Shown in pieces: positions 1,090 through 42,581 of a stretch of 42,581 bases of DNA. Numbering within the stretch: the first letter of the stretch is position 1; the number at the start of each line of letters is the position of its first letter. The notes beneath the pieces were generated by a model. That model did not search any database, was not told where the DNA came from, and saw nothing but the letters and a program-made list of their open reading frames with translations. Origin of the DNA: a virus (taxonomy: Duplodnaviria > Heunggongvirae > Uroviricota > Caudoviricetes). A program made the translations under genes and the position numbers. The stretch lies in IMG/VR virus record IMGVR_UViG_3300045988_019953, positions 1 through 42,581 of that record; one strand, written 5' to 3'.

Positions 1090-1305
1090 ATGCAACCATC
1101 TGAACTAGGCATCCGTGTAGAACAACGCCGTAAAGAACTCGGCATCTCCCAGCGCCGTCTGGCTGTTCTGACTGGCGTTTCCCAGGGCGCGATTAACCAG
1201 CTGGCACTTGGGGTAACTCAGGACGTCCGACCGGCGACGCTGTTTAAACTGGCGGAAGTGCTGCAAGTAGACGCCAAGTGGCTGGCGTTCGGTGAAGGGG
1301 CTTAA
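1090..1305 (+). CDS. XRE/Cro-like helix-turn-helix transcriptional regulator
   Basis: 71 aa; segment ELGISQRRLAVLTGVSQGAINQL matches the classic XRE HTH pattern; SD AAGGAG upstream. Confidence 0.8.
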   Translation: MQPSELGIRVEQRRKELGISQRRLAVLTGVSQGAINQLALGVTQDVRPATLFKLAEVLQVDAKWLAFGEGA

Positions 1306-4630: not shown

Positions 4631-4659
4631 TTGCACACCCCAATATAATAGGATACTAT
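4631..4659 (+). promoter_or_regulatory. Early promoter TTGCAC-17-TACTAT with dyad AATAG-N4-CTATT (4647-4660)
   Basis: Hexamers with 17-bp spacer; 23-mer nearly identical to those at 15540 and 24940; conserved leader TCACTTATCGAAACGAG. Confidence 0.55.
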
Positions 4660-4693
4660 TCACTTATCGAAACGAGACTGAGGAGTGAGGGTT

Positions 4694-5858: not shown

Positions 5859-5887
5859 TTGCACACTAAGATAGAATAGGCTACTAT
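5859..5887 (+). promoter_or_regulatory. Early promoter TTGCAC-17-TACTAT with dyad AATAG-N4-CTATT (5875-5888)
   Basis: Same architecture as 4631-4659; followed by RBS GAGGAGAG and ATG at 5919. Confidence 0.5.
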
Positions 5888-5918
5888 TCATTTACACGAA
5901 CAAGAGGAGAGACAGAAG

Positions 5919-15246: not shown

Positions 15247-15272
15247 AAAGGCCCCTTTCGGGGCCTTAGTTT
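15247..15272. terminator. Bidirectional rho-independent terminator (AAGGCCCC-TTTC-GGGGCCTT)
   Basis: 8-bp GC stem with A/T-rich flanks on both sides; between convergent genes. Confidence 0.65.
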
Positions 15273-15517: not shown

Positions 15518-15543
15518 ACACCCTCCTCGTTTCGATGTAATGA

Positions 15544-15572
15544 ATAGTACCCTATTATATTGGTGTCTGCAA
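15544..15572 (-). promoter_or_regulatory. Early-type promoter on minus strand (TTGCAG-17-TACTAT) with dyad AATAG-N4-CTATT (15543-15556)
   Basis: 23-mer identical to 24940-24962 and a 1-mismatch reverse complement of 4639-4661; leader matches early promoter leaders. Confidence 0.55.
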
Positions 15573-22748: not shown

Positions 22749-22772
22749 AAGGCCCCTTTCGGGGCCTTTTTC
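22749..22772. terminator. Bidirectional terminator (AAGGCCCC-TTTC-GGGGCCTT)
   Basis: Same 16-mer core as 15250-15265; T tract on plus strand, A/T-rich on the other side. Confidence 0.65.
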
Positions 22773-24913: not shown

Positions 24914-24943
24914 TTTAAACCCCTTCATTGTTGGTGTAAGTGA

Positions 24944-34855: not shown

Positions 34856-36276
34856 TTTTTACCTCTGCGCTTCATGTACTCTAGTAATATGTCTTGTACT
34901 TGCTTTTTCTCGTCGGTACGAGCCGCAACTACCTCATCTAACGTATCTTTAGCAATAATCTTGTAGATAAAAACAGGGCGATTATACCCCGATTGCTTTT
35001 GACGCGTTGGACCTATACGCTCGACAACCTGCAAATAGTGCTCGAGGTTCCAGCCTTGCGAAATAAACGCCAGATGATGGCCGCCGTCCTGTAAATTCAA
35101 ACCATGACCGGCTGACGCAGGGTGAACGCACAAAATCTCGATTTCGCCACGGTTCCACGCCTCCATCTGCTTATTGCCCTTGGCGCCTTTGGCAAACGCC
35201 TGTGCTTGCGGGAATCGCTTAAGGATACGCTCCAGTTCGTGCTTGAACTGATAGGCCACCAGTAACGGCGCGCCCTGTAACTCCTCAACAATTGACTCAA
35301 GAGCATCCAGCTTCGTGTCATGCACTTTCTCCCAGTCTTTGGTTGCTTCGCCGTCTGGCCCCGATACATACACGGCACCGGATGCAATCTGCAAACACTT
35401 CGACGTCTTCGCCGCAGCGTTAGCCGCTTCAACTTCCCCGCTTTCCAGTTCCGCGAATAACTTCTCCTCCATATCGATGTACGTCTGACGCGCTTTCTTC
35501 GGCAGGTCGATTTCAACCGGTACGATAACGGGCGCTTCACAACCGAACCACTCAGCGGCATCAATCGTGAGACTAATGTCCTTCATCTTCTGGTGGATTT
35601 CATTATCTGCGCCAGGGCGTGCGTGATATTCGCGCGCCATAGCAGATTTTCCTTTCTGCACCGAGTTAAACCAGCGGTCGGTGAACGCTGTGTACGAAGA
35701 ACCGAGTCGCTCGCCCGCGTCGATAAACCAGTTCTGCCCCCACAAGTCCTTGAGGCCGTTTGGCGACGGTGTACCGGTCAGGTTGATGAAACGCTTAACC
35801 TTACCGAACGCCACTTTACTAAGCGCCTTTGCCCTCTTGCTGCCTCCCGAACGGCTACGGAATGACTTGAGCTTCGTGCTCTCATCGGCAACGATAGCCG
35901 TAAAAGGCCAGTCGTCTTTGCCGTAGTAGTCAATGAGCCACTCGATAACTTCGTAGTTGGTACACACCACGTTAGCGTCTGACTCCAGCGCCGAGATACG
36001 GCGCTTCTCCGAACCTGTTGCATCTACGACACTCAAACAAGGGAACCGCCATTTCTCTTGTTCAGATGGCCACGTGCCAGATGCAACGCGCAACGGGGCG
36101 AGGATTAACACGCGGTCCTCTTCCGTAAGCTGTCCGTTGCGAAACAGGCGGTTTAAAGTCCACAGGACGCTACCAGTCTTCCCGGCGCCCATGCTCGCCC
36201 AAATATTACAGCGATGATGTCGCAACATGAACGAGGTCATGAGCTTCTGGTACTCGCGCCTTTGAAACTTACTCAT
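34852..36276 (-). CDS. Superfamily 2 DEAD/DEAH-type DNA helicase
   Basis: Walker A SMGAGKTG, DEST box (IVADESTK), C-terminal helicase-type region. Confidence 0.8.
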   Translation of the reverse strand: MSKFQRREYQKLMTSFMLRHHRCNIWASMGAGKTGSVLWTLNRLFRNGQLTEEDRVLILAPLRVASGTWPSEQEKWRFPCLSVVDATGSEKRRISALESDANVVCTNYEVIEWLIDYYGKDDWPFTAIVADESTKLKSFRSRSGGSKRAKALSKVAFGKVKRFINLTGTPSPNGLKDLWGQNWFIDAGERLGSSYTAFTDRWFNSVQKGKSAMAREYHARPGADNEIHQKMKDISLTIDAAEWFGCEAPVIVPVEIDLPKKARQTYIDMEEKLFAELESGEVEAANAAAKTSKCLQIASGAVYVSGPDGEATKDWEKVHDTKLDALESIVEELQGAPLLVAYQFKHELERILKRFPQAQAFAKGAKGNKQMEAWNRGEIEILCVHPASAGHGLNLQDGGHHLAFISQGWNLEHYLQVVERIGPTRQKQSGYNRPVFIYKIIAKDTLDEVVAARTDEKKQVQDILLEYMKRRGKK

Positions 36277-36763
36277 TGGGTCGTATTCCTTTGTCTAATG
36301 TTTCAAGTGCCGATACCCTGGCGGCTATTGCTTCTTCTCTTGTAGAGTAATAACCTAAATGCTTCTTTATTCCGTCAATAGTCATATACGCGGCCCATTT
36401 GTTATGCGACTCTCGCCACCTGACGCCAGGAAAGCCGCTTTTATTACTCGACCTAATTTTCTGCCATCCAGCTTTTGCGACGTTACCTTGTTGTGTCACT
36501 AACTGTAGATTTTCCAATCGGTTATCATCGTACACGCCATTTATGTGGTCAATTTGCATTCCTTCTGGAATCTTGCCGTTGTGCATCTCCCAGACTATTC
36601 TATGTGCTTGGTATATTTTACCTTTGAACTTAATACGCCTATGCCCCTTGTTTACCGAGCTTCCTGCTGTACTGCCTACCGATACTCTCGGCCTCGGTCT
36701 TACTCGCCAAATGAGGGCGCCGTTGTCGTAGGTGAATATCCTACCCCATGCTATTTCACACAT
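36269..36763 (-). CDS. HNH homing endonuclease, copy 3 of 4
   Basis: Motif MQIDHINGVYDDNRLENL plus KSGFPGVRW; RBS AAGGA. Confidence 0.8.
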   Translation of the reverse strand: MCEIAWGRIFTYDNGALIWRVRPRPRVSVGSTAGSSVNKGHRRIKFKGKIYQAHRIVWEMHNGKIPEGMQIDHINGVYDDNRLENLQLVTQQGNVAKAGWQKIRSSNKSGFPGVRWRESHNKWAAYMTIDGIKKHLGYYSTREEAIAARVSALETLDKGIRPNE

Positions 36764-36972: not shown

Positions 36973-37272
36973 CTAACTATAATAGTTCGCTATTAGGTCG
37001 TCAACCTGTTTGAAAGACCCGACGACAAAAACATTTGCACCGCGTCTACGCATCCGCTCATGCTCACGTAACTGGTGCGGGTCTGGCTTCGTGTTTTCGT
37101 CTTTCTTAACCTCGACGAACCAGATGATGCCGCCGGGGAGAATTACCAGCAGGTCAGGGGCTCCCACTCTGTTTTCATATGACAATTTGCGTACGAGGCC
37201 CCCAAGGGCCTCGAATCGCTCTTTTGCGTATTTCTGTATTTTTCCTTCCGGGGTCATGGGCGCAGAATCCAA
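36973..37272 (-). CDS. VRR-NUC domain nuclease
   Basis: Motifs GAPDLLVILPGG and IWFVEVKKDE match the VRR-NUC pattern; probable TTG start after AGGTGGGG. Confidence 0.65.
   Translation of the reverse strand: MDSAPMTPEGKIQKYAKERFEALGGLVRKLSYENRVGAPDLLVILPGGIIWFVEVKKDENTKPDPHQLREHERMRRRGANVFVVGSFKQVDDLIANYYS
36976..37004 (-). promoter_or_regulatory. Leftward promoter TTGACG-17-TATAGT with dyad AATAG-N4-CTATT (36981-36994)
   Basis: Same architecture and spacer core as leftward promoters at 996-1025 and 41215-41243. Confidence 0.5.
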
Positions 37273-37679: not shown

Positions 37680-37811
37680 TCATTCCAGCACCCACAGATA
37701 AATTGCGATTAACAGGCCCAATACGGCTGCCATCATGCCGTATTGGGCCTCGTGACAGTAGACACCGGCAGCAAATCCCGCCAGTACCGCGATAATCAGT
37801 TTACTTAGCAT
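37680..37811 (-). CDS. Small membrane protein (43 aa)
   Basis: Manual translation MLSKLIIAVLAGFAAGVYC...; start overlaps polymerase 3-prime end; below track threshold. Confidence 0.35.
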   Translation of the reverse strand: MLSKLIIAVLAGFAAGVYCHEAQYGMMAAVLGLLIAIYLWVLE

Positions 37812-39999
37812 AACGTTTTAACTCCTGACCTTCTGCTACAAGAGGGAACCCCTCAGCCCATTCCGGTAATTCGCACATCAACCGCTCAAGTTCAGCCACC
37901 GTGTAATCCGCCGTGTCTGGAGTTTCACATACCAGTTCATCGTGTACCGAAAGCACGATGGGGTACCCGCCACCCTCAACATTAATCATCGCATATGCTA
38001 GTAAATCACGGCACAGTGCCTGGACCAGGTTTTCACAGGCTTTGCCGCCGTGTGTGTACAGGGTGGTCCATTGACGGGTTAACGGGTGTTCGCCTTGATA
38101 CTTTATTCGCACATTCGTGTTCACCCGTCCGTCTTCGTCTGTTTCCTTTGTCACACTAACGCCGATTCCCGGATACGAGAGGATACGGCCTGACGGCAAC
38201 TCCATACACAACCACCAACCTGGAACCTTCCTACCGGATGAATCAAATTCTACAGTACGCCATATGCGGATAGCCCTTTCCCCGTTCCTGCGCAAGTGTG
38301 CCCCTGCCCAAAATTCACGACCAGGATTACGCACAGCGGCTAAAATTCCATCTTTAAGGTCACGCCAGAACGCTACTGTTTCGGGGTGTGACTCGCGCCA
38401 CATACGCTTGATAGCATCACAAGTACGCCACACTTTCTTATCGAGGATATACGATGGTCGGTCATCCTTTTCACCCGGATGCGGCGGTCGCTTTGCTTCC
38501 TGGATACGCGCCCACTCATAGCCACGTGCGGTAGCAGCCCATATGTGGTCGGGGAATGTACCGTCCATTGTTTTTGCCATCTCAATAAGGTCGAGGCCTA
38601 AGTTTTTAGCGAACGTAACGAACGCTCCGACACCCCCCTCATAGCCGAGGCCAAGCTCGCAAGCCTTGCCTATCTGTCTGATTTCCTTGAAGTTTTTCTT
38701 AATGTCATTGGGGTCCATGCCGAACATCTTGCCTGCGGTTACGCAGTAAATATCCAGTCCGGCGCGGAACGTATCAAGCGCGGTTTCTTCGCCCGCCAGC
38801 CACGCTAAACCACGGCCTTCTACGTTAGAGTAATCGGCGACGACAAACTTATGCCCGGCTTCCGGGATAATGCAGCTACGGACCGTCGATGCCGTCAGCT
38901 TGGCTACATCAAAACGGCGATGCGCGCGGCCCTTAAGTAACGCTGAAATGCCTTTATCCAGTTCATCATCGTGATAGTAACCGCGCGCCAGGTTCTGCGG
39001 CTGGAAGCCTTTACCGGCCCATCGCAGAGTTCGTTTTGCCCCGCCGTACTGCAAGCAACCGCGACGGCGGTCGTCCGACGAGCGACCTAACAGAAGCGGG
39101 TTATATTTCGTTGACGCGGTAGACGCTGCCCCGAGTCGCATCTCGATAATCGTGCGGGCGTCGTCAGGTAAATCATCATCCGCCAACAGGTCGTTAAGCG
39201 TAGACTTCTGCGCGTTGTGGATGCGGTGCGCTGGCGCAAGTTCACGCAGAATCGGCAGAAAATCCTTACCAGTAAGCGAGCCGCCGTATTTGCGTTGGGC
39301 TTCTTCCTGTAACTGGGCCTTGTGATTCTCCACGGCTTCAATCGCGGCTTCCGCTAGTGCGACGTCAACCTTAAACCCGCGGTCGTTGATTAACTGGTCC
39401 AGTTCCAGTACACGGTCCTCGAACTCGGAGTTACCCCAACGCGGCAGCTTATGGAAGACTTCACGCATCGCAGTGATGTCGCTCACAGCGTACTTGATGA
39501 ACAGCGCCCACTCGTCCGGGTGCGTTTCGGCGGTGTAGCGGCGAATTTTGTAGTTCTTCGGTGTCGGTTTAGAGAAACGCTTAATCAGCGCCTTGCCGCG
39601 TTTATCTTTCGCGTTGTCCGCAGATACGCCCAGCACTTCACACAGCGCATCAAGCGAACCAGGCAGCGCGTGACGAAACGCCCAAATCATAGTATCAATA
39701 GTGTTACTTACCGGAATATCAAAACCCCAGCAGTGCTTCATGATGAGTCTGTCGAACATTAAAAAGTTATGGCCCACGATTTTCATACGTCCACGCATAA
39801 CATTACGGAGAGCCACACGGAGGCTTATCGGCATTACTGATTCGGAAGTGCAATCCCATACTTCTACAGGACCGTCATCAACAGCATACGTACAAATTAT
39901 GACCTCTGTCGTTGGGTGCTCCGCATACGCATACGACCCGACTTTCTTTAAGTCTGCTTCGGAGAATGTCTCGGTATCCAGGTACAATAAACTAGTCAT
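37801..39999 (-). CDS. DNA polymerase, family A, with N-terminal 3-5 exonuclease domain
   Basis: Exo motif LYLDTET; pol motif A DYSNVEGR; motif C SVHDELV; RBS AAGGA; 732 aa. Confidence 0.9.
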   Translation of the reverse strand: MTSLLYLDTETFSEADLKKVGSYAYAEHPTTEVIICTYAVDDGPVEVWDCTSESVMPISLRVALRNVMRGRMKIVGHNFLMFDRLIMKHCWGFDIPVSNTIDTMIWAFRHALPGSLDALCEVLGVSADNAKDKRGKALIKRFSKPTPKNYKIRRYTAETHPDEWALFIKYAVSDITAMREVFHKLPRWGNSEFEDRVLELDQLINDRGFKVDVALAEAAIEAVENHKAQLQEEAQRKYGGSLTGKDFLPILRELAPAHRIHNAQKSTLNDLLADDDLPDDARTIIEMRLGAASTASTKYNPLLLGRSSDDRRRGCLQYGGAKRTLRWAGKGFQPQNLARGYYHDDELDKGISALLKGRAHRRFDVAKLTASTVRSCIIPEAGHKFVVADYSNVEGRGLAWLAGEETALDTFRAGLDIYCVTAGKMFGMDPNDIKKNFKEIRQIGKACELGLGYEGGVGAFVTFAKNLGLDLIEMAKTMDGTFPDHIWAATARGYEWARIQEAKRPPHPGEKDDRPSYILDKKVWRTCDAIKRMWRESHPETVAFWRDLKDGILAAVRNPGREFWAGAHLRRNGERAIRIWRTVEFDSSGRKVPGWWLCMELPSGRILSYPGIGVSVTKETDEDGRVNTNVRIKYQGEHPLTRQWTTLYTHGGKACENLVQALCRDLLAYAMINVEGGGYPIVLSVHDELVCETPDTADYTVAELERLMCELPEWAEGFPLVAEGQELKRYAK

Positions 40000-40465
40000 G
40001 GCAATAAAATTCCTTATGCAGTTTTTCTCTTAATTTCTTTACAGCGCTTTCCGCTTCTTCAAGAGTTCCGTAGCTACCAGCGTTATAACTTTTGTAGTTA
40101 AAATGTACACGCCCATAAAATCGGTTGCCGTTTTTAACTACTCCCTTAACCCCCGTTCTAGCTCCCTTATTTTTAGCGTTTCGCACATTATCCGCTGTGG
40201 TTGCTTTCCTTAGGTTAGAAATCCTATTGTCTAACCTGTCACGGTTTATATGGTCAAGAGGCCCCTCAGGCCATTCGCCGTAGTCGAAAAACCAAGCAAG
40301 CCTGTGGGCCATATAGTATCTACCCATATAAGGTATGCGCCAGTATCCGCTACTATTAATACATCCCGCAATGTCTCCGGGTTTCCCTCGTCTGTATGTA
40401 GGTTGTATCCATGTGAATATTCCGGTTTCTCGGTTATAGCTAAGAAAATCTTTTATATGTTCCAT
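39992..40465 (-). CDS. HNH homing endonuclease, copy 4 of 4
   Basis: Motif LDHINRDRLDNRISNL plus ARTGVKGV; ATG 40463-40465 after GGAG preferred over track TTG 40489. Confidence 0.8.
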   Translation of the reverse strand: MEHIKDFLSYNRETGIFTWIQPTYRRGKPGDIAGCINSSGYWRIPYMGRYYMAHRLAWFFDYGEWPEGPLDHINRDRLDNRISNLRKATTADNVRNAKNKGARTGVKGVVKNGNRFYGRVHFNYKSYNAGSYGTLEEAESAVKKLREKLHKEFYCHD

Positions 40466-40476
40466 TCTGACTCCGG

Positions 40477-40500
40477 TAAAAAGGCCCAATGAAGGGCCTT
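40477..40500 (-). terminator. Terminator-like hairpin AAGGCCC-AATGAA-GGGCCTT with T tract on minus strand
   Basis: 7-bp stem; TTTT follows on minus strand; between SSB-like gene and HNH/polymerase. Confidence 0.5.
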
Positions 40501-40519
40501 AGTTAAATTGATTCAGATA

Positions 40520-41146
40520 TTAGCGGCGGCGACGTTCGCGGCGCGGTGCTTCATCTTCTTCGTCGTCTTCCAGGTCATCAACGCTTGCAGCGACTTTAGA
40601 ACCGCCGAACGCTTTACCTTCACCAACGTATTTAATCGCCAGCAGGTTAACACCGAGGACTTTATATTTCTGGCTGAACCAGATTTCGACGCTTACGTTA
40701 GCCACGCAGCCGCTGTAAACCTGTTCGCCTTCAATCTGTTCACCGTCAACGTTGAAGTCCTGCTCTACCTGAGTCTCACCTTTTTTAGAGGTTACAATCA
40801 GCGGCTGTTTCTGTGCCTTCGCTTTGAAGTAGAAGCCTTCCGGGAAGTCTTCAAATGGATTGTCGCGCTCGGCAATGTCTTTAATCGCGCATTTATCCAT
40901 GTGCTTACCTTCGCCGTAGTTGGACTTCATCCATTTCTCGGCAGCGGCTGCGCCTAACGCCTCTTCAACTACAGAGTAAACTGTGTCGTAGAGTGCGTCG
41001 ATTTGAGCATGGTCAGACGGCAGGATAATAGTTGCGCTGTACTGACCTTTAGTGATTGAGCCATCATCGTTTTCACGGTCTTTTTCGCGTTCAAATACGT
41101 TAACCCATGCAGTGTTTACTTTACGCAGATTTAATTTCAGTCCCAT
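40520..41146 (-). CDS. Putative ssDNA-binding / annealing protein (DUF2815-like)
   Basis: 208 aa with acidic tail DDLEDDEEDE; adjacent to exonuclease; family assignment from memory. Confidence 0.45.
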   Translation of the reverse strand: MGLKLNLRKVNTAWVNVFEREKDRENDDGSITKGQYSATIILPSDHAQIDALYDTVYSVVEEALGAAAAEKWMKSNYGEGKHMDKCAIKDIAERDNPFEDFPEGFYFKAKAQKQPLIVTSKKGETQVEQDFNVDGEQIEGEQVYSGCVANVSVEIWFSQKYKVLGVNLLAIKYVGEGKAFGGSKVAASVDDLEDDEEDEAPRRERRRR

Positions 41147-41214
41147 CGTGATTTCTCGCTTTTCAGTTTATATTTCAAAGTTTACTCCGGGAAGCTGCCC
41201 GGCCAGTGATTAGA

Positions 41215-41243
41215 ACTATAATAGCTTGCTATTCAGGTGTCAA
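41215..41243 (-). promoter_or_regulatory. Leftward promoter TTGACA-17-TATAGT with dyad AATAG-N4-CTATT (41220-41233)
   Basis: Hexamers and dyad read in sequence; between exonuclease stop and SSB-like start. Confidence 0.5.
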
Positions 41244-41247
41244 TACT

Positions 41248-42489
41248 TTATTCTAAATCTTCTTCACTAACCCGATTCCACTCAGGACGTTTGTCACCTG
41301 CCGTTGCAACACATGGTGTGCCCGGCTTACGGGTAATGAAGTCTTTCAGTTCTTCTTCCGGTATGACTTTAACAGCTTCGGTAGGTGACATGAGCACTTC
41401 TTTAGTCAGCTTGTCGCCGTAGAGTTCTGCTACTTTCTCTGCATCTTTCCACGCACGATTACCAGGACGACCTTCCACCAGCTTGTACCCTGGAACTTTC
41501 TTACCGGAATGCAACGCGGTGGCCATAGCTTTCTCAACCTTGTCGATGTGCTGACGCAACAACGGCAACTTCTCATACTCAGCTACGAGTTGCTCCGGTG
41601 TCAGTTCCAGTGCAAAGTCGTCTTCCAGTTCTTCCGCCAGTACAGAATTAACTGTCTTTGTACGCGCGGCGCATTGCTCAGAGAACCGACACCACTGGCA
41701 ACCATCGACCGACGGCTTGAAGTCCGACGCTTTCAGATTCTTTTTACCACGGTAATAAGCATCAAGGGCTAATAGTGCGCGTTTCTGTGCGAACTTAGCG
41801 AACAGTTCCAGACCTTCAACCGAGATGTCCCACTCCGACGCGCCCCCGGCGTACGGCTGGAAGATGACCAGACGAACAACCGTGATGTTATAACGTCTCT
41901 TGAGTCGGCGATAAACACCGAGAGCGTAAAGCATAAGCTGTTTGTTTTCTTTAGCTTCGACACGATGCCGTCCTGTTTTCAGGTCGCCGATGATGAGCAT
42001 GTGCCCGTCAGTGTTGGCCAGTTCTTGGACGGCAACAAGGTCAGCCGTTCCAAACGTCTCAACGCCTTCATAACCCGGATGCAATACCTCAGTAAGATTG
42101 ACACGCATTTCCAACTTGGCATAAGTCGCTACATCGATAATCGCTTTGCAGTAGTCAGTGTACTTGCGCACCTGCTCAATCATGTCCGCCGTAATCAGTG
42201 CCGCACCTTTCATCGGGCTGATTAGCGCCTTAATCTGGCCTTTACCTTCATCCAGCACGTAAGCACCGACTTCGCGTTCTAACGGCAGCGCAGCGCCTTT
42301 GATGTACTGATTTAAATGGACCTCAGCTATAGTGTGGCACGCGGTCCCTGTAACGGCGGATTTACCCGAAGTGTTAGGAATATCTTTTTCACAGGCCAGT
42401 GACGCCGCGCATGACAGCCACTTTTTAGCGCCTGACGGCGACAGTAAGGCGTGTACATCGTTATTACCACCGCGTTCCTTTAAAATCAT
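41248..42489 (-). CDS. Cas4/RecB-like PD-(D/E)XK exonuclease with Cys cluster
   Basis: C-terminal CQWCRFSEQC (CX2CX5C) plus N-terminal Cys; ATG 42487-42489 overlaps the stop of the junction-spanning ORF; track lists GTG 42504. Confidence 0.7.
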   Translation of the reverse strand: MILKERGGNNDVHALLSPSGAKKWLSCAASLACEKDIPNTSGKSAVTGTACHTIAEVHLNQYIKGAALPLEREVGAYVLDEGKGQIKALISPMKGAALITADMIEQVRKYTDYCKAIIDVATYAKLEMRVNLTEVLHPGYEGVETFGTADLVAVQELANTDGHMLIIGDLKTGRHRVEAKENKQLMLYALGVYRRLKRRYNITVVRLVIFQPYAGGASEWDISVEGLELFAKFAQKRALLALDAYYRGKKNLKASDFKPSVDGCQWCRFSEQCAARTKTVNSVLAEELEDDFALELTPEQLVAEYEKLPLLRQHIDKVEKAMATALHSGKKVPGYKLVEGRPGNRAWKDAEKVAELYGDKLTKEVLMSPTEAVKVIPEEELKDFITRKPGTPCVATAGDKRPEWNRVSEEDLE

Positions 42490-42504
42490 ACCCTGTTCTC
42501 CCAC

Positions 42505-42581
42505 TGGTCAATTAAATGCCGAGTTTTATGTTCGCAGTGCATAGCCCACCCATACATCGACTCGAAGACATAAAAGTCTGG
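42505..42581. repeat. Terminal direct repeat, right copy (identical to 1-77)
   Basis: Exact 77/77 identity with window start. Confidence 0.9.

Follow-up and report, generated by a model that had tools for sequence, protein, structure and literature searches.

The DNA described here is IMG/VR virus record IMGVR_UViG_3300045988_019953 (Caudoviricetes), analyzed over its whole length of 42,581 nucleotides (nt) and referred to as the window. Two neighboring genes on its minus strand are the subject. One, at 41248-42489, encodes a 413-amino-acid (aa) DUF2800 nuclease, a RecB-family PD-(D/E)XK protein with a four-cysteine iron-sulfur (Fe-S) pattern. The other, at 40520-41146, encodes a 208-aa DUF2815 protein, a binding protein for single-stranded DNA (ssDNA), abbreviated SSB, of the T7 gp2.5 type. 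A preliminary description had placed a recombination pair, made up of a Cas4-like Fe-S exonuclease and an SSB-like protein, at 41248-42489. These coordinates are those of the nuclease gene, whereas the SSB-like gene lies outside them.

The region around the two genes has approximately 91% nucleotide identity to Escherichia phages EM1, vB-Eco-KMB36, and vB_VIPECOMC04. The same level of identity is observed with about 430 other Kagunavirus and Jerseyvirus (Guernseyvirinae) records. Judged by its sequence, the window is a Kagunavirus-like genome. The gene 5' of the nuclease gene is truncated by the window end, and the remainder of its leftward cluster is found at the window start, which indicates that the window is a circularly permuted phage genome.

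The nuclease and SSB genes are followed leftward by an HNH insert and a family A DNA polymerase gene (37801-39999, minus strand; PF00476 and PF01612). These are the three genes of the duf2800-gp2.5-polA module, in order and with no separate ssb gene. The module was named by Steczkiewicz et al. and is present also in phages of Gram-negative hosts (PMC8093625). Its gene order is kept in 10 other lineages. It is seen in the metagenomic relatives L012-L020, where SSB identity falls as low as 24%, in Enc34, and in the Dhillonvirus Bas17. Among 50,697 phage records, 1475 contain a DUF2800 homologue. Databases already include near-identical proteins (96-98%), annotated as exonuclease and as ssDNA-binding/annealing protein.

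Nuclease and ssDNA-binding protein

The nuclease open reading frame (ORF) is intact. It begins with an ATG at 42489, which overlaps the stop codon of the preceding gene as ATGA, and ends with TAA at 41250-41248. An alternative GTG start at 42504 would add five residues, and relatives annotate a gene of 1242 nt, matching the ATG start. Pfam assigns the protein to DUF2800 (PF10926) with an E-value of 1.4e-68 and 232 bits against a cut-off of 21, covering profile positions 1-368 of 368; the scan also matches PDDEXK_1. In PHROGs, the protein belongs to phrog_69, "exonuclease" (4.5e-120). NCBIfam gives no match for the nuclease or the SSB.

Conservation was assessed on an alignment of 143 representative homologues with 28-59% identity. 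A first, word-indexed search returned only sequences of at least 94% identity, unfit for this purpose, and an exhaustive representative search, which found 11,753 relatives, was used instead. Columns C27, G48, H52, D150, D169, K171, G173, Q184, Y188, C264, C267, C273, and K336 are invariant. The CX2CX5C cluster on which the preliminary description relied is present as C264-QW-C267-RFSEQ-C273 (41671-41700, minus strand), and the codon of Cys27, a putative fourth Fe-S ligand near the N-terminus, lies at 42409-42411 (minus strand). The catalytic core spans 41926-42042 (minus strand) and includes D150 (motif II), D169-L-K171 (motif III), and Q184...Y188 (QxxxY). Alignment had been named as the check on the cluster and the nuclease residues, and both the cysteines and RecB motifs II, III, and QxxxY hold throughout the alignment.

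The conserved motif II Asp, the (D/E)xK of motif III, and QxxxY are those of the RecB family. An N-terminal Cys combined with a C-terminal CX2CX5C is the pattern of the Fe-S "iron-staple" nucleases AddB, AdnA, Cas4, Dna2, and Exo5. The high-confidence model of the protein resembles solved members of the RecB family. In the structural comparison, AdnA ranks first, followed by Dna2 and then by Cas4-family proteins and AddB; MGME1 is also among the best, and Exo5, RecE, and lambda exonuclease are matched as well. At the sequence level, a single-sequence search against solved structures found nothing, and the family profile reaches one solved relative, AdnA (3e-4).

Sequence and predicted model together show a RecB-family PD-(D/E)XK enzyme with the C...CX2CX5C pattern of the AdnA/AddB/Cas4/Dna2 group. 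Among solved structures, end-resection nucleases are its nearest relatives. The earlier label of a Cas4/AddB-type Fe-S nuclease is thus right for fold and cofactor pattern, but the protein is outside the Cas4 family. No Cas4 profile (Pfam Cas_Cas4 or the NCBIfam cas4 models) matches it at E <= 0.01. No cas1/cas2 gene or CRISPR locus is found beside the nuclease gene in the window or in relatives, where the neighbors are replication genes.

The last ~120 aa of the nuclease (residues ~290-413; window 41251-41620) form a domain that is confidently predicted to be ordered. Its conserved residues are G329, G334, K336, G340, R345, W347, D399, and R401, and no solved structure matched it. Several Jerseyvirus nuclease genes are ~180 nt longer (e.g., SETP3 ORF41, at L004 2000-3427). 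They align in two pieces, which points to an internal insertion, and one such record annotates the region as an intein-containing helicase.

The SSB gene product matches Enc34_ssDNA-bd/DUF2815 (PF10991; 1.5e-15, 57.8 bits against a cut-off of 26) and phrog_112 (7.6e-42), labeled "Gp2.5-like ssDNA binding and annealing protein" in PHROGs. A profile built from 33 homologues reaches the solved structures 4JG2 (4e-20), 4KLK (7e-16), and Enc34 ORF6, 5ODJ (2.5e-10). The predicted structure has a pLDDT (predicted local distance difference test) of 87, and Foldseek matches it to 5ODL (2e-8) and 1JE5 (5e-6). At E <= 0.001, the only matches of the model are the Enc34 SSB, DUF2815 proteins, and T7 gp2.5. 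In the model, strands E3-16 and E36-43 are followed by helices H49-64 and H66-76, as in an oligonucleotide/oligosaccharide-binding (OB) fold in which strand beta-2 leads into a long helix. By profile and by fold, the neighbor of the nuclease is SSB-like, as had been proposed.

The C-terminal tail of the SSB (40523-40579, minus strand) has low pLDDT, is predicted to be disordered, and is kept in close homologues. The acidic tail attributed to it is present as DDLEDDEEDE, but it is followed by a basic final block, APRRERRRR, in place of the usual hydrophobic last residue. In SSB homologues of 40-54% identity, the unit (D/E)n-xPRRxRR is present one to three times (alignment A4, columns 270-352). 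For an SSB tail, such repeats of an acidic run plus xPRRxRR are an uncommon, zwitterionic arrangement. The tails of Enc34 and of distant homologues are simply acidic, with F or V as the last residue. Enc34 ORF6 binds ssDNA, and its acidic tail enforces the preference for ssDNA (PMC5686142).

The nuclease ends in SEEDLE (41251-41268, minus strand), a putative docking motif. Its final pentapeptide, EEDLE, is shared with the primase-helicase (AAA_25, PF13481; 1323-3563, minus strand), where it is encoded at 1326-1343. In the window, the tails read ...RVSEEDLE in the nuclease and ...TVTEEDLE in the primase-helicase, and the SSB contains ...VDDLEDD.... Clade members keep (S/T)(D/E)(D/E)DL in the tail of the nuclease and T-E-(E/G)-D-L-E in that of the primase-helicase. 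In Enc34, the nuclease, SSB, and primase end in ...DEDDDEV, ...EWDEDEV, and ...FDDEDEV. In Bas17, the nuclease ends in ...ATDEDLSNE, the SSB in ...DEDEAPRKRRRR, and the primase(-helicase) in ...ATDEDLKD. In the distant relative L012, the nuclease ends in ...EDDDLN and the SSB in ...DDDDLN; the VapE-type primase ends in ...YYQRKK, without an acidic tail. The peptide thus varies between phages, yet matches between unrelated proteins inside each phage.

T7 provides a parallel, as its polymerase is bound by the acidic tails of both gp2.5 and gp4. Contacts between tail and partner are also mentioned in work on Enc34 (PMC5686142). The matching tails are a new detail of this system and, by analogy, suggest a common docking site and a replisome-tethered nuclease.

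Promoter, dyad, and transcription unit of the SSB gene

The nuclease and SSB genes are separated by a gap of 101 nt that contains P3, a predicted leftward sigma-70-like promoter (41215-41243, minus strand). It consists of TTGACA (41243-41238), a spacer of 17 nt, and TATAGT (41220-41215). With near-consensus hexamers, it matches at 11 of 12 positions and is one of only two such matches in 42.6 kb; it is intergenic and upstream of a gene. The spacer holds a perfect dyad, AATAGCAAGCTATT (41220-41233), a putative operator. The leftward promoter with a dyad that had been noticed between the two genes is therefore borne out, and promoter, dyad, and downstream leader hardly vary across 12 Kagunavirus and Jerseyvirus genomes in which the flanking coding DNA is ~70-90% identical. 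The strict P3 pattern occurs in 62 of 73 clade loci, and a promoter at this position is already annotated in the GenBank records of SETP3 and PVP-SE2. In many relatives, a small extra ORF of 58-78 aa lies between the nuclease gene and the SSB promoter (L002 4831-5067, which is EM1 gp68; L004 1827-2003; L007 635-808; L014 5732-5935). The window has no such ORF.

The dyad core, AATAG-N4-CTATT, has seven copies in the window against 0.02 expected by chance. They are located at 1001-1014, 4647-4660, 5875-5888, 15543-15556, 24943-24956, 36981-36994, and 41220-41233. Three of the seven lie within leftward consensus sigma-70 promoters (TTGACA-17-TATAGT). The remaining four copies lie in a conserved 40-nt block, TTGCACACCCCAATATAATAGGnTACTATTCAyTTAC, which precedes genes of either strand by 40-60 nt. 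As a group, the seven sites look like the main regulated promoters of the phage. The same motif, likewise in seven copies and given as tgAATAGTa-ccTATTat-T, was reported in Kagunavirus fBC-Eco01 and ascribed to a phage RNA polymerase (PMC9825357).

The same combination of promoter and dyad recurs twice, in each case at the head of another leftward early unit. P1 (996-1025, minus strand; 11 of 12 positions) heads the leftward operon that contains the nuclease gene, and P2 (36976-37004, minus strand) matches at 10 of 12. Divergent from P1 is a gene for a 71-aa helix-turn-helix (HTH) protein of the Cro/CI type (1090-1305, plus strand), the obvious candidate for a dyad-binding regulator. A dyad copy with one mismatch, AATAGTACCATATT, lies between P1 and the HTH gene at 1041-1060. 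In L014, a different palindrome, TTAGCGAGCTAA, takes the place of the dyad, which fits an operator co-evolving with its regulator.

Downstream of P3, the leader of the SSB gene contains a predicted hairpin, CCGGG-cagctt-CCCGG (41187-41202, minus strand), with a centroid energy of -8.7 kcal/mol. A perfect 5-bp GC hairpin is present 24-40 nt before the SSB ATG in 70 of the 73 clade loci. Its stem has four versions, CCGGG/CCCGG, CTCGG/CCGAG, CCCGG/CCGGG, and CCCAG/CTGGG, with the loop C(A/G)G..TT. These complementary versions indicate compensatory changes at three of the five pairs. Stems were counted by direct enumeration, as MAFFT alignment of the short segments misregistered loops of unequal length. 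Rfam gives no match in 40400-42581, which indicates that the hairpin is not a described RNA family. A role of the hairpin as terminator of the nuclease transcript was considered and rejected; it has no U-run and sits downstream of the promoter.

The hairpin is followed by an AU-rich stretch with a GAG Shine-Dalgarno-like element before the SSB ATG (41147-41186, minus strand). It is predicted to be unstructured, folding no better than shuffled sequences (z = +1.39). The leader block AAAAGCGAGAAA is conserved. A promoter next to an AT-rich leader could also, as in T7, be a candidate replication origin; strand skew is confounded here by gene orientation. Directly 3' of the SSB stop codon is a predicted intrinsic terminator, AAGGCCC-ttcatt-GGGCCTT-TTT (40478-40500, minus strand), read from the sequence. 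The automated terminator scan missed it because its T-run is partly inside the stem. A terminator is found at this position in 68 of the 73 clade loci, with differing stem sequences, and is annotated in PVP-SE2.

The SSB gene thus appears to form a self-contained transcription unit, bounded by a promoter and a terminator of its own and containing a covarying 5' hairpin, a detail that is new. Its separate transcription, also proposed in the preliminary description, is well supported by these conserved signals. In Enc34 and the distant L012, the SSB gene is preceded by neither a promoter nor a hairpin.

Three HNH_3/AP2 homing-endonuclease genes are scattered through the replication module (39992-40465, 36269-36763, and 34358-34855; all minus strand). 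The first, between the SSB and polymerase genes, matches PF13392 (1.5e-14). Its true start is the ATG at 40465 and not the TTG at 40489, because the TTG falls inside the SSB terminator; relatives annotate 474 nt. The presence and position of such genes vary among relatives, and in PVP-SE2 and SETP3 the SSB and polymerase genes are not separated by one. Further neighbors are a VRR-NUC nuclease and an SNF2 helicase, and the SNF2 helicase gene of one metagenomic relative (L013 10164-12638) includes Hom_end/Hint (intein) domains. Elsewhere in the window, an identical bidirectional terminator hairpin, AAGGCCCCTTTCGGGGCCTT, occurs at 15248-15267 and 22749-22768, in both cases where gene orientation switches.

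Proposed role of the pair and its alternatives

The nuclease and SSB genes open the widespread duf2800-gp2.5-like SSB-polA module, which here belongs to a T7-like replication and recombination apparatus. The polymerase, the primase-helicase, the VRR-NUC nuclease, and the SNF2 helicase complete a T7-like replication/recombination set. The nuclease would probably resect DNA ends to single strands, and the gp2.5-type SSB would coat these strands and anneal them. Resection and annealing could then lead to recombination-dependent replication and concatemer formation. From the conserved signals, both genes would be read leftward from the early promoter P1. The promoter, operator-like dyad, hairpin, and terminator of the SSB gene would in addition yield an abundant monocistronic mRNA for a protein needed in stoichiometric amounts. 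Through the shared acidic peptide (E/D)(E/D)DL(E), the nuclease, primase-helicase, and SSB probably dock on one and the same partner, for instance the polymerase.

The recombination pair suggested in the preliminary description is supported by the module order and by published pairings of exonucleases with Gp2.5-like proteins. Lopes et al. (2010) found the Gp2.5-like proteins through the clustering of their genes with those of RecE-like exonucleases, and one of them anneals in vivo (PMC2896510). The DUF2800 protein B14T of Bas14 (Dhillonvirus) triggers retron type IX, an effect for which its catalytic residues are needed. The substitutions D177A/K179A, equivalent to D169/K171 here, abolish this activity-dependent triggering (bioRxiv 10.64898/2026.07.14.737667).

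Several points weigh against this overall reading. Escape mutants of Bas14 truncate the DUF2800 gene and stay viable (bioRxiv 10.64898/2026.07.14.737667), and the nuclease is thus dispensable at least in Bas14. The sole DUF2815 protein tested for recombineering gave the lowest frequency among those compared (PMC5743808). The docking idea is based on three to four lineages, two of which are related. The polarity of the nuclease, its Fe-S binding, the annealing activity, and the transcription start are inferred.

The nuclease could instead be mainly a replisome accessory that, like T7 gp6, removes RNA primers or flaps or degrades host DNA for nucleotides. The Pfam scan reports only polymerase and 3'-5' exonuclease domains in the polymerase and no 5'-3' exonuclease or flap endonuclease (FEN) domain, and no FEN-type gene is seen in the scanned part of the replication module. 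A C-terminal peptide common to nuclease, primase-helicase, and SSB is what a replisome-tethered factor would be expected to have, and Dna2 and MGME1, which process flaps and 5' ends, are among the top structural matches. Yet primers are removable by host Pol I, and the viable truncations of the Bas14 homologue are hard to square with an essential role in primer removal. Published context analyses, moreover, tie this type of nuclease to Gp2.5-like annealases (PMC8093625, PMC2896510). The accessory role is rated as unlikely. A phage "Cas4" that influences adaptation of the host CRISPR system, an interplay raised in the preliminary description, or that otherwise serves in counter-defense is hardly credible. 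None of the analyses connects the nuclease with CRISPR, its sequence matches no Cas4 profile of Pfam or NCBIfam, and AdnA and Dna2 are structurally closer. The gene belongs to a conserved replication module, no cas gene is nearby, and the type I-E systems of E. coli and Salmonella function without Cas4. The known link to defense is the reverse, with a member of the family, B14T, being sensed by retron IX.

With resection and annealing as the preferred role of the pair, the intergenic element itself allows another reading. Rather than an independent promoter for the host polymerase, it could be bound by a phage factor, or the long P1 transcript could be processed or attenuated there, with the SSB gene expressed only by read-through. 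The dyad block is conserved far beyond what a sigma-70 promoter needs, the same motif was flagged by PHIRE as a phage-specific promoter (fBC-Eco01, PMC9825357), and promoter-like matches overall are no commoner in the window than in shuffled sequence. Nevertheless, the -35 and -10 hexamers are near-consensus with a 17-nt spacing and are retained even where the dyad differs (L014, L019, and L020). No phage RNA polymerase gene is seen among the annotations in the examined regions of related genomes, which counts against a phage factor of that kind. The terminator directly 3' of the SSB gene is best explained by a separate unit, and a site of this other type is considered improbable.

A more speculative extension combines the tail and the leader. 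The Arg-rich end of the SSB might be an RNA-binding motif, like that of the lambda and P22 N proteins, that recognizes the leader hairpin of its own mRNA and so provides autogenous control, while the (E/D)(E/D)DL(E) code tethers the Fe-S nuclease to the replisome. Taken jointly, these two proposals are a long shot. The co-occurrence of the Arg-rich tail and the hairpin across the 73 clade loci is inseparable from shared ancestry, and only the outgroups Enc34 and L012 lack both.

The module, the exonuclease/Gp2.5-like pairing, the promoter, and the seven-copy dyad motif are already published or annotated. The new details are minor and consist of the apparently self-contained SSB unit with its covarying hairpin, the Arg-rich tail end, and the matching tail peptides. 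The phage is flagged as a carrier of a DUF2800 nuclease, a family recently found to set off retron type IX. Retron Eco8 is triggered by phage SSBs. Retron triggering by DUF2800 nucleases and SSBs bears on predictions of host range and for phage therapy. The matching peptides offer a handle on the assembly of little-studied replisomes, and the SSB unit, which combines a conserved hairpin with an arginine-rich tail, is a small candidate system for autoregulation.

Comparison with known systems

Enc34, a Hafnia/Enterobacter phage, has the same families in the same order in ORF5-ORF6-ORF7: DUF2800, a DUF2815 SSB (5ODJ/5ODL), and a family A polymerase. As in the window, a divergent regulator, a primase, a VRR-NUC gene, and a helicase surround the module, and a terminator follows the SSB gene. 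The SSB folds match, and a C-terminal peptide is common to nuclease, SSB, and primase. Identity to the window is 27% for the nuclease and about 16-18% for the SSB. Unlike in the window, no promoter and no hairpin precede the SSB gene of Enc34, and the Enc34 SSB tail, ...EWDEDEV, is purely acidic without an Arg-rich block.

T7 has the same SSB fold class in gp2.5 (1JE5). The T7 proteins gp2.5, gp6, gp5, and gp4 resemble the set in the window: the polymerase has no 5'-3' exonuclease, the tail of the SSB is acidic and disordered, and there are a primase-helicase and a separate nuclease. It is a hallmark of T7 that its SSB and primase-helicase have acidic tails in common. The T7 tails have a terminal phenylalanine, whereas those in the window end in DLE or in arginines. 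T7 gp6 is of the FEN type, whereas the nuclease here is predicted to be an Fe-S RecB-family enzyme, and no phage RNA polymerase is seen here.

Compared with the nuclease domains of AdnA and AddB, which belong to bacterial end-resection machines, the window nuclease is a stand-alone protein with no fused helicase and with its own ~120-aa C-terminal domain that matches nothing solved. It differs from Cas4 in having no Cas4 profile match and no cas or CRISPR context, and it is about twice the size of Cas4. Bas14_0045 (B14T) belongs to the same Pfam family and has the same module position and the same catalytic D-x-K. Dhillonvirus homologues (Bas17 and HK578) are ~45% identical to the window nuclease. 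The C-terminal region of B14T is described as disordered, whereas the equivalent region here is predicted to be ordered.

The pairs of RecE-like exonuclease and Gp2.5-like protein in phage phi12 and others likewise consist of an adjacent nuclease and gp2.5-type OB-fold protein. They were proposed, and partly validated, as exonuclease/annealase recombination pairs (PMC2896510). Lopes et al. termed the nuclease RecE-like, and the Fe-S cluster and the transcription signals lie outside that work (PMC2896510). The autoregulation proposed for the SSB would follow the same logic as that of T4 gene 32, with a different recognition device.

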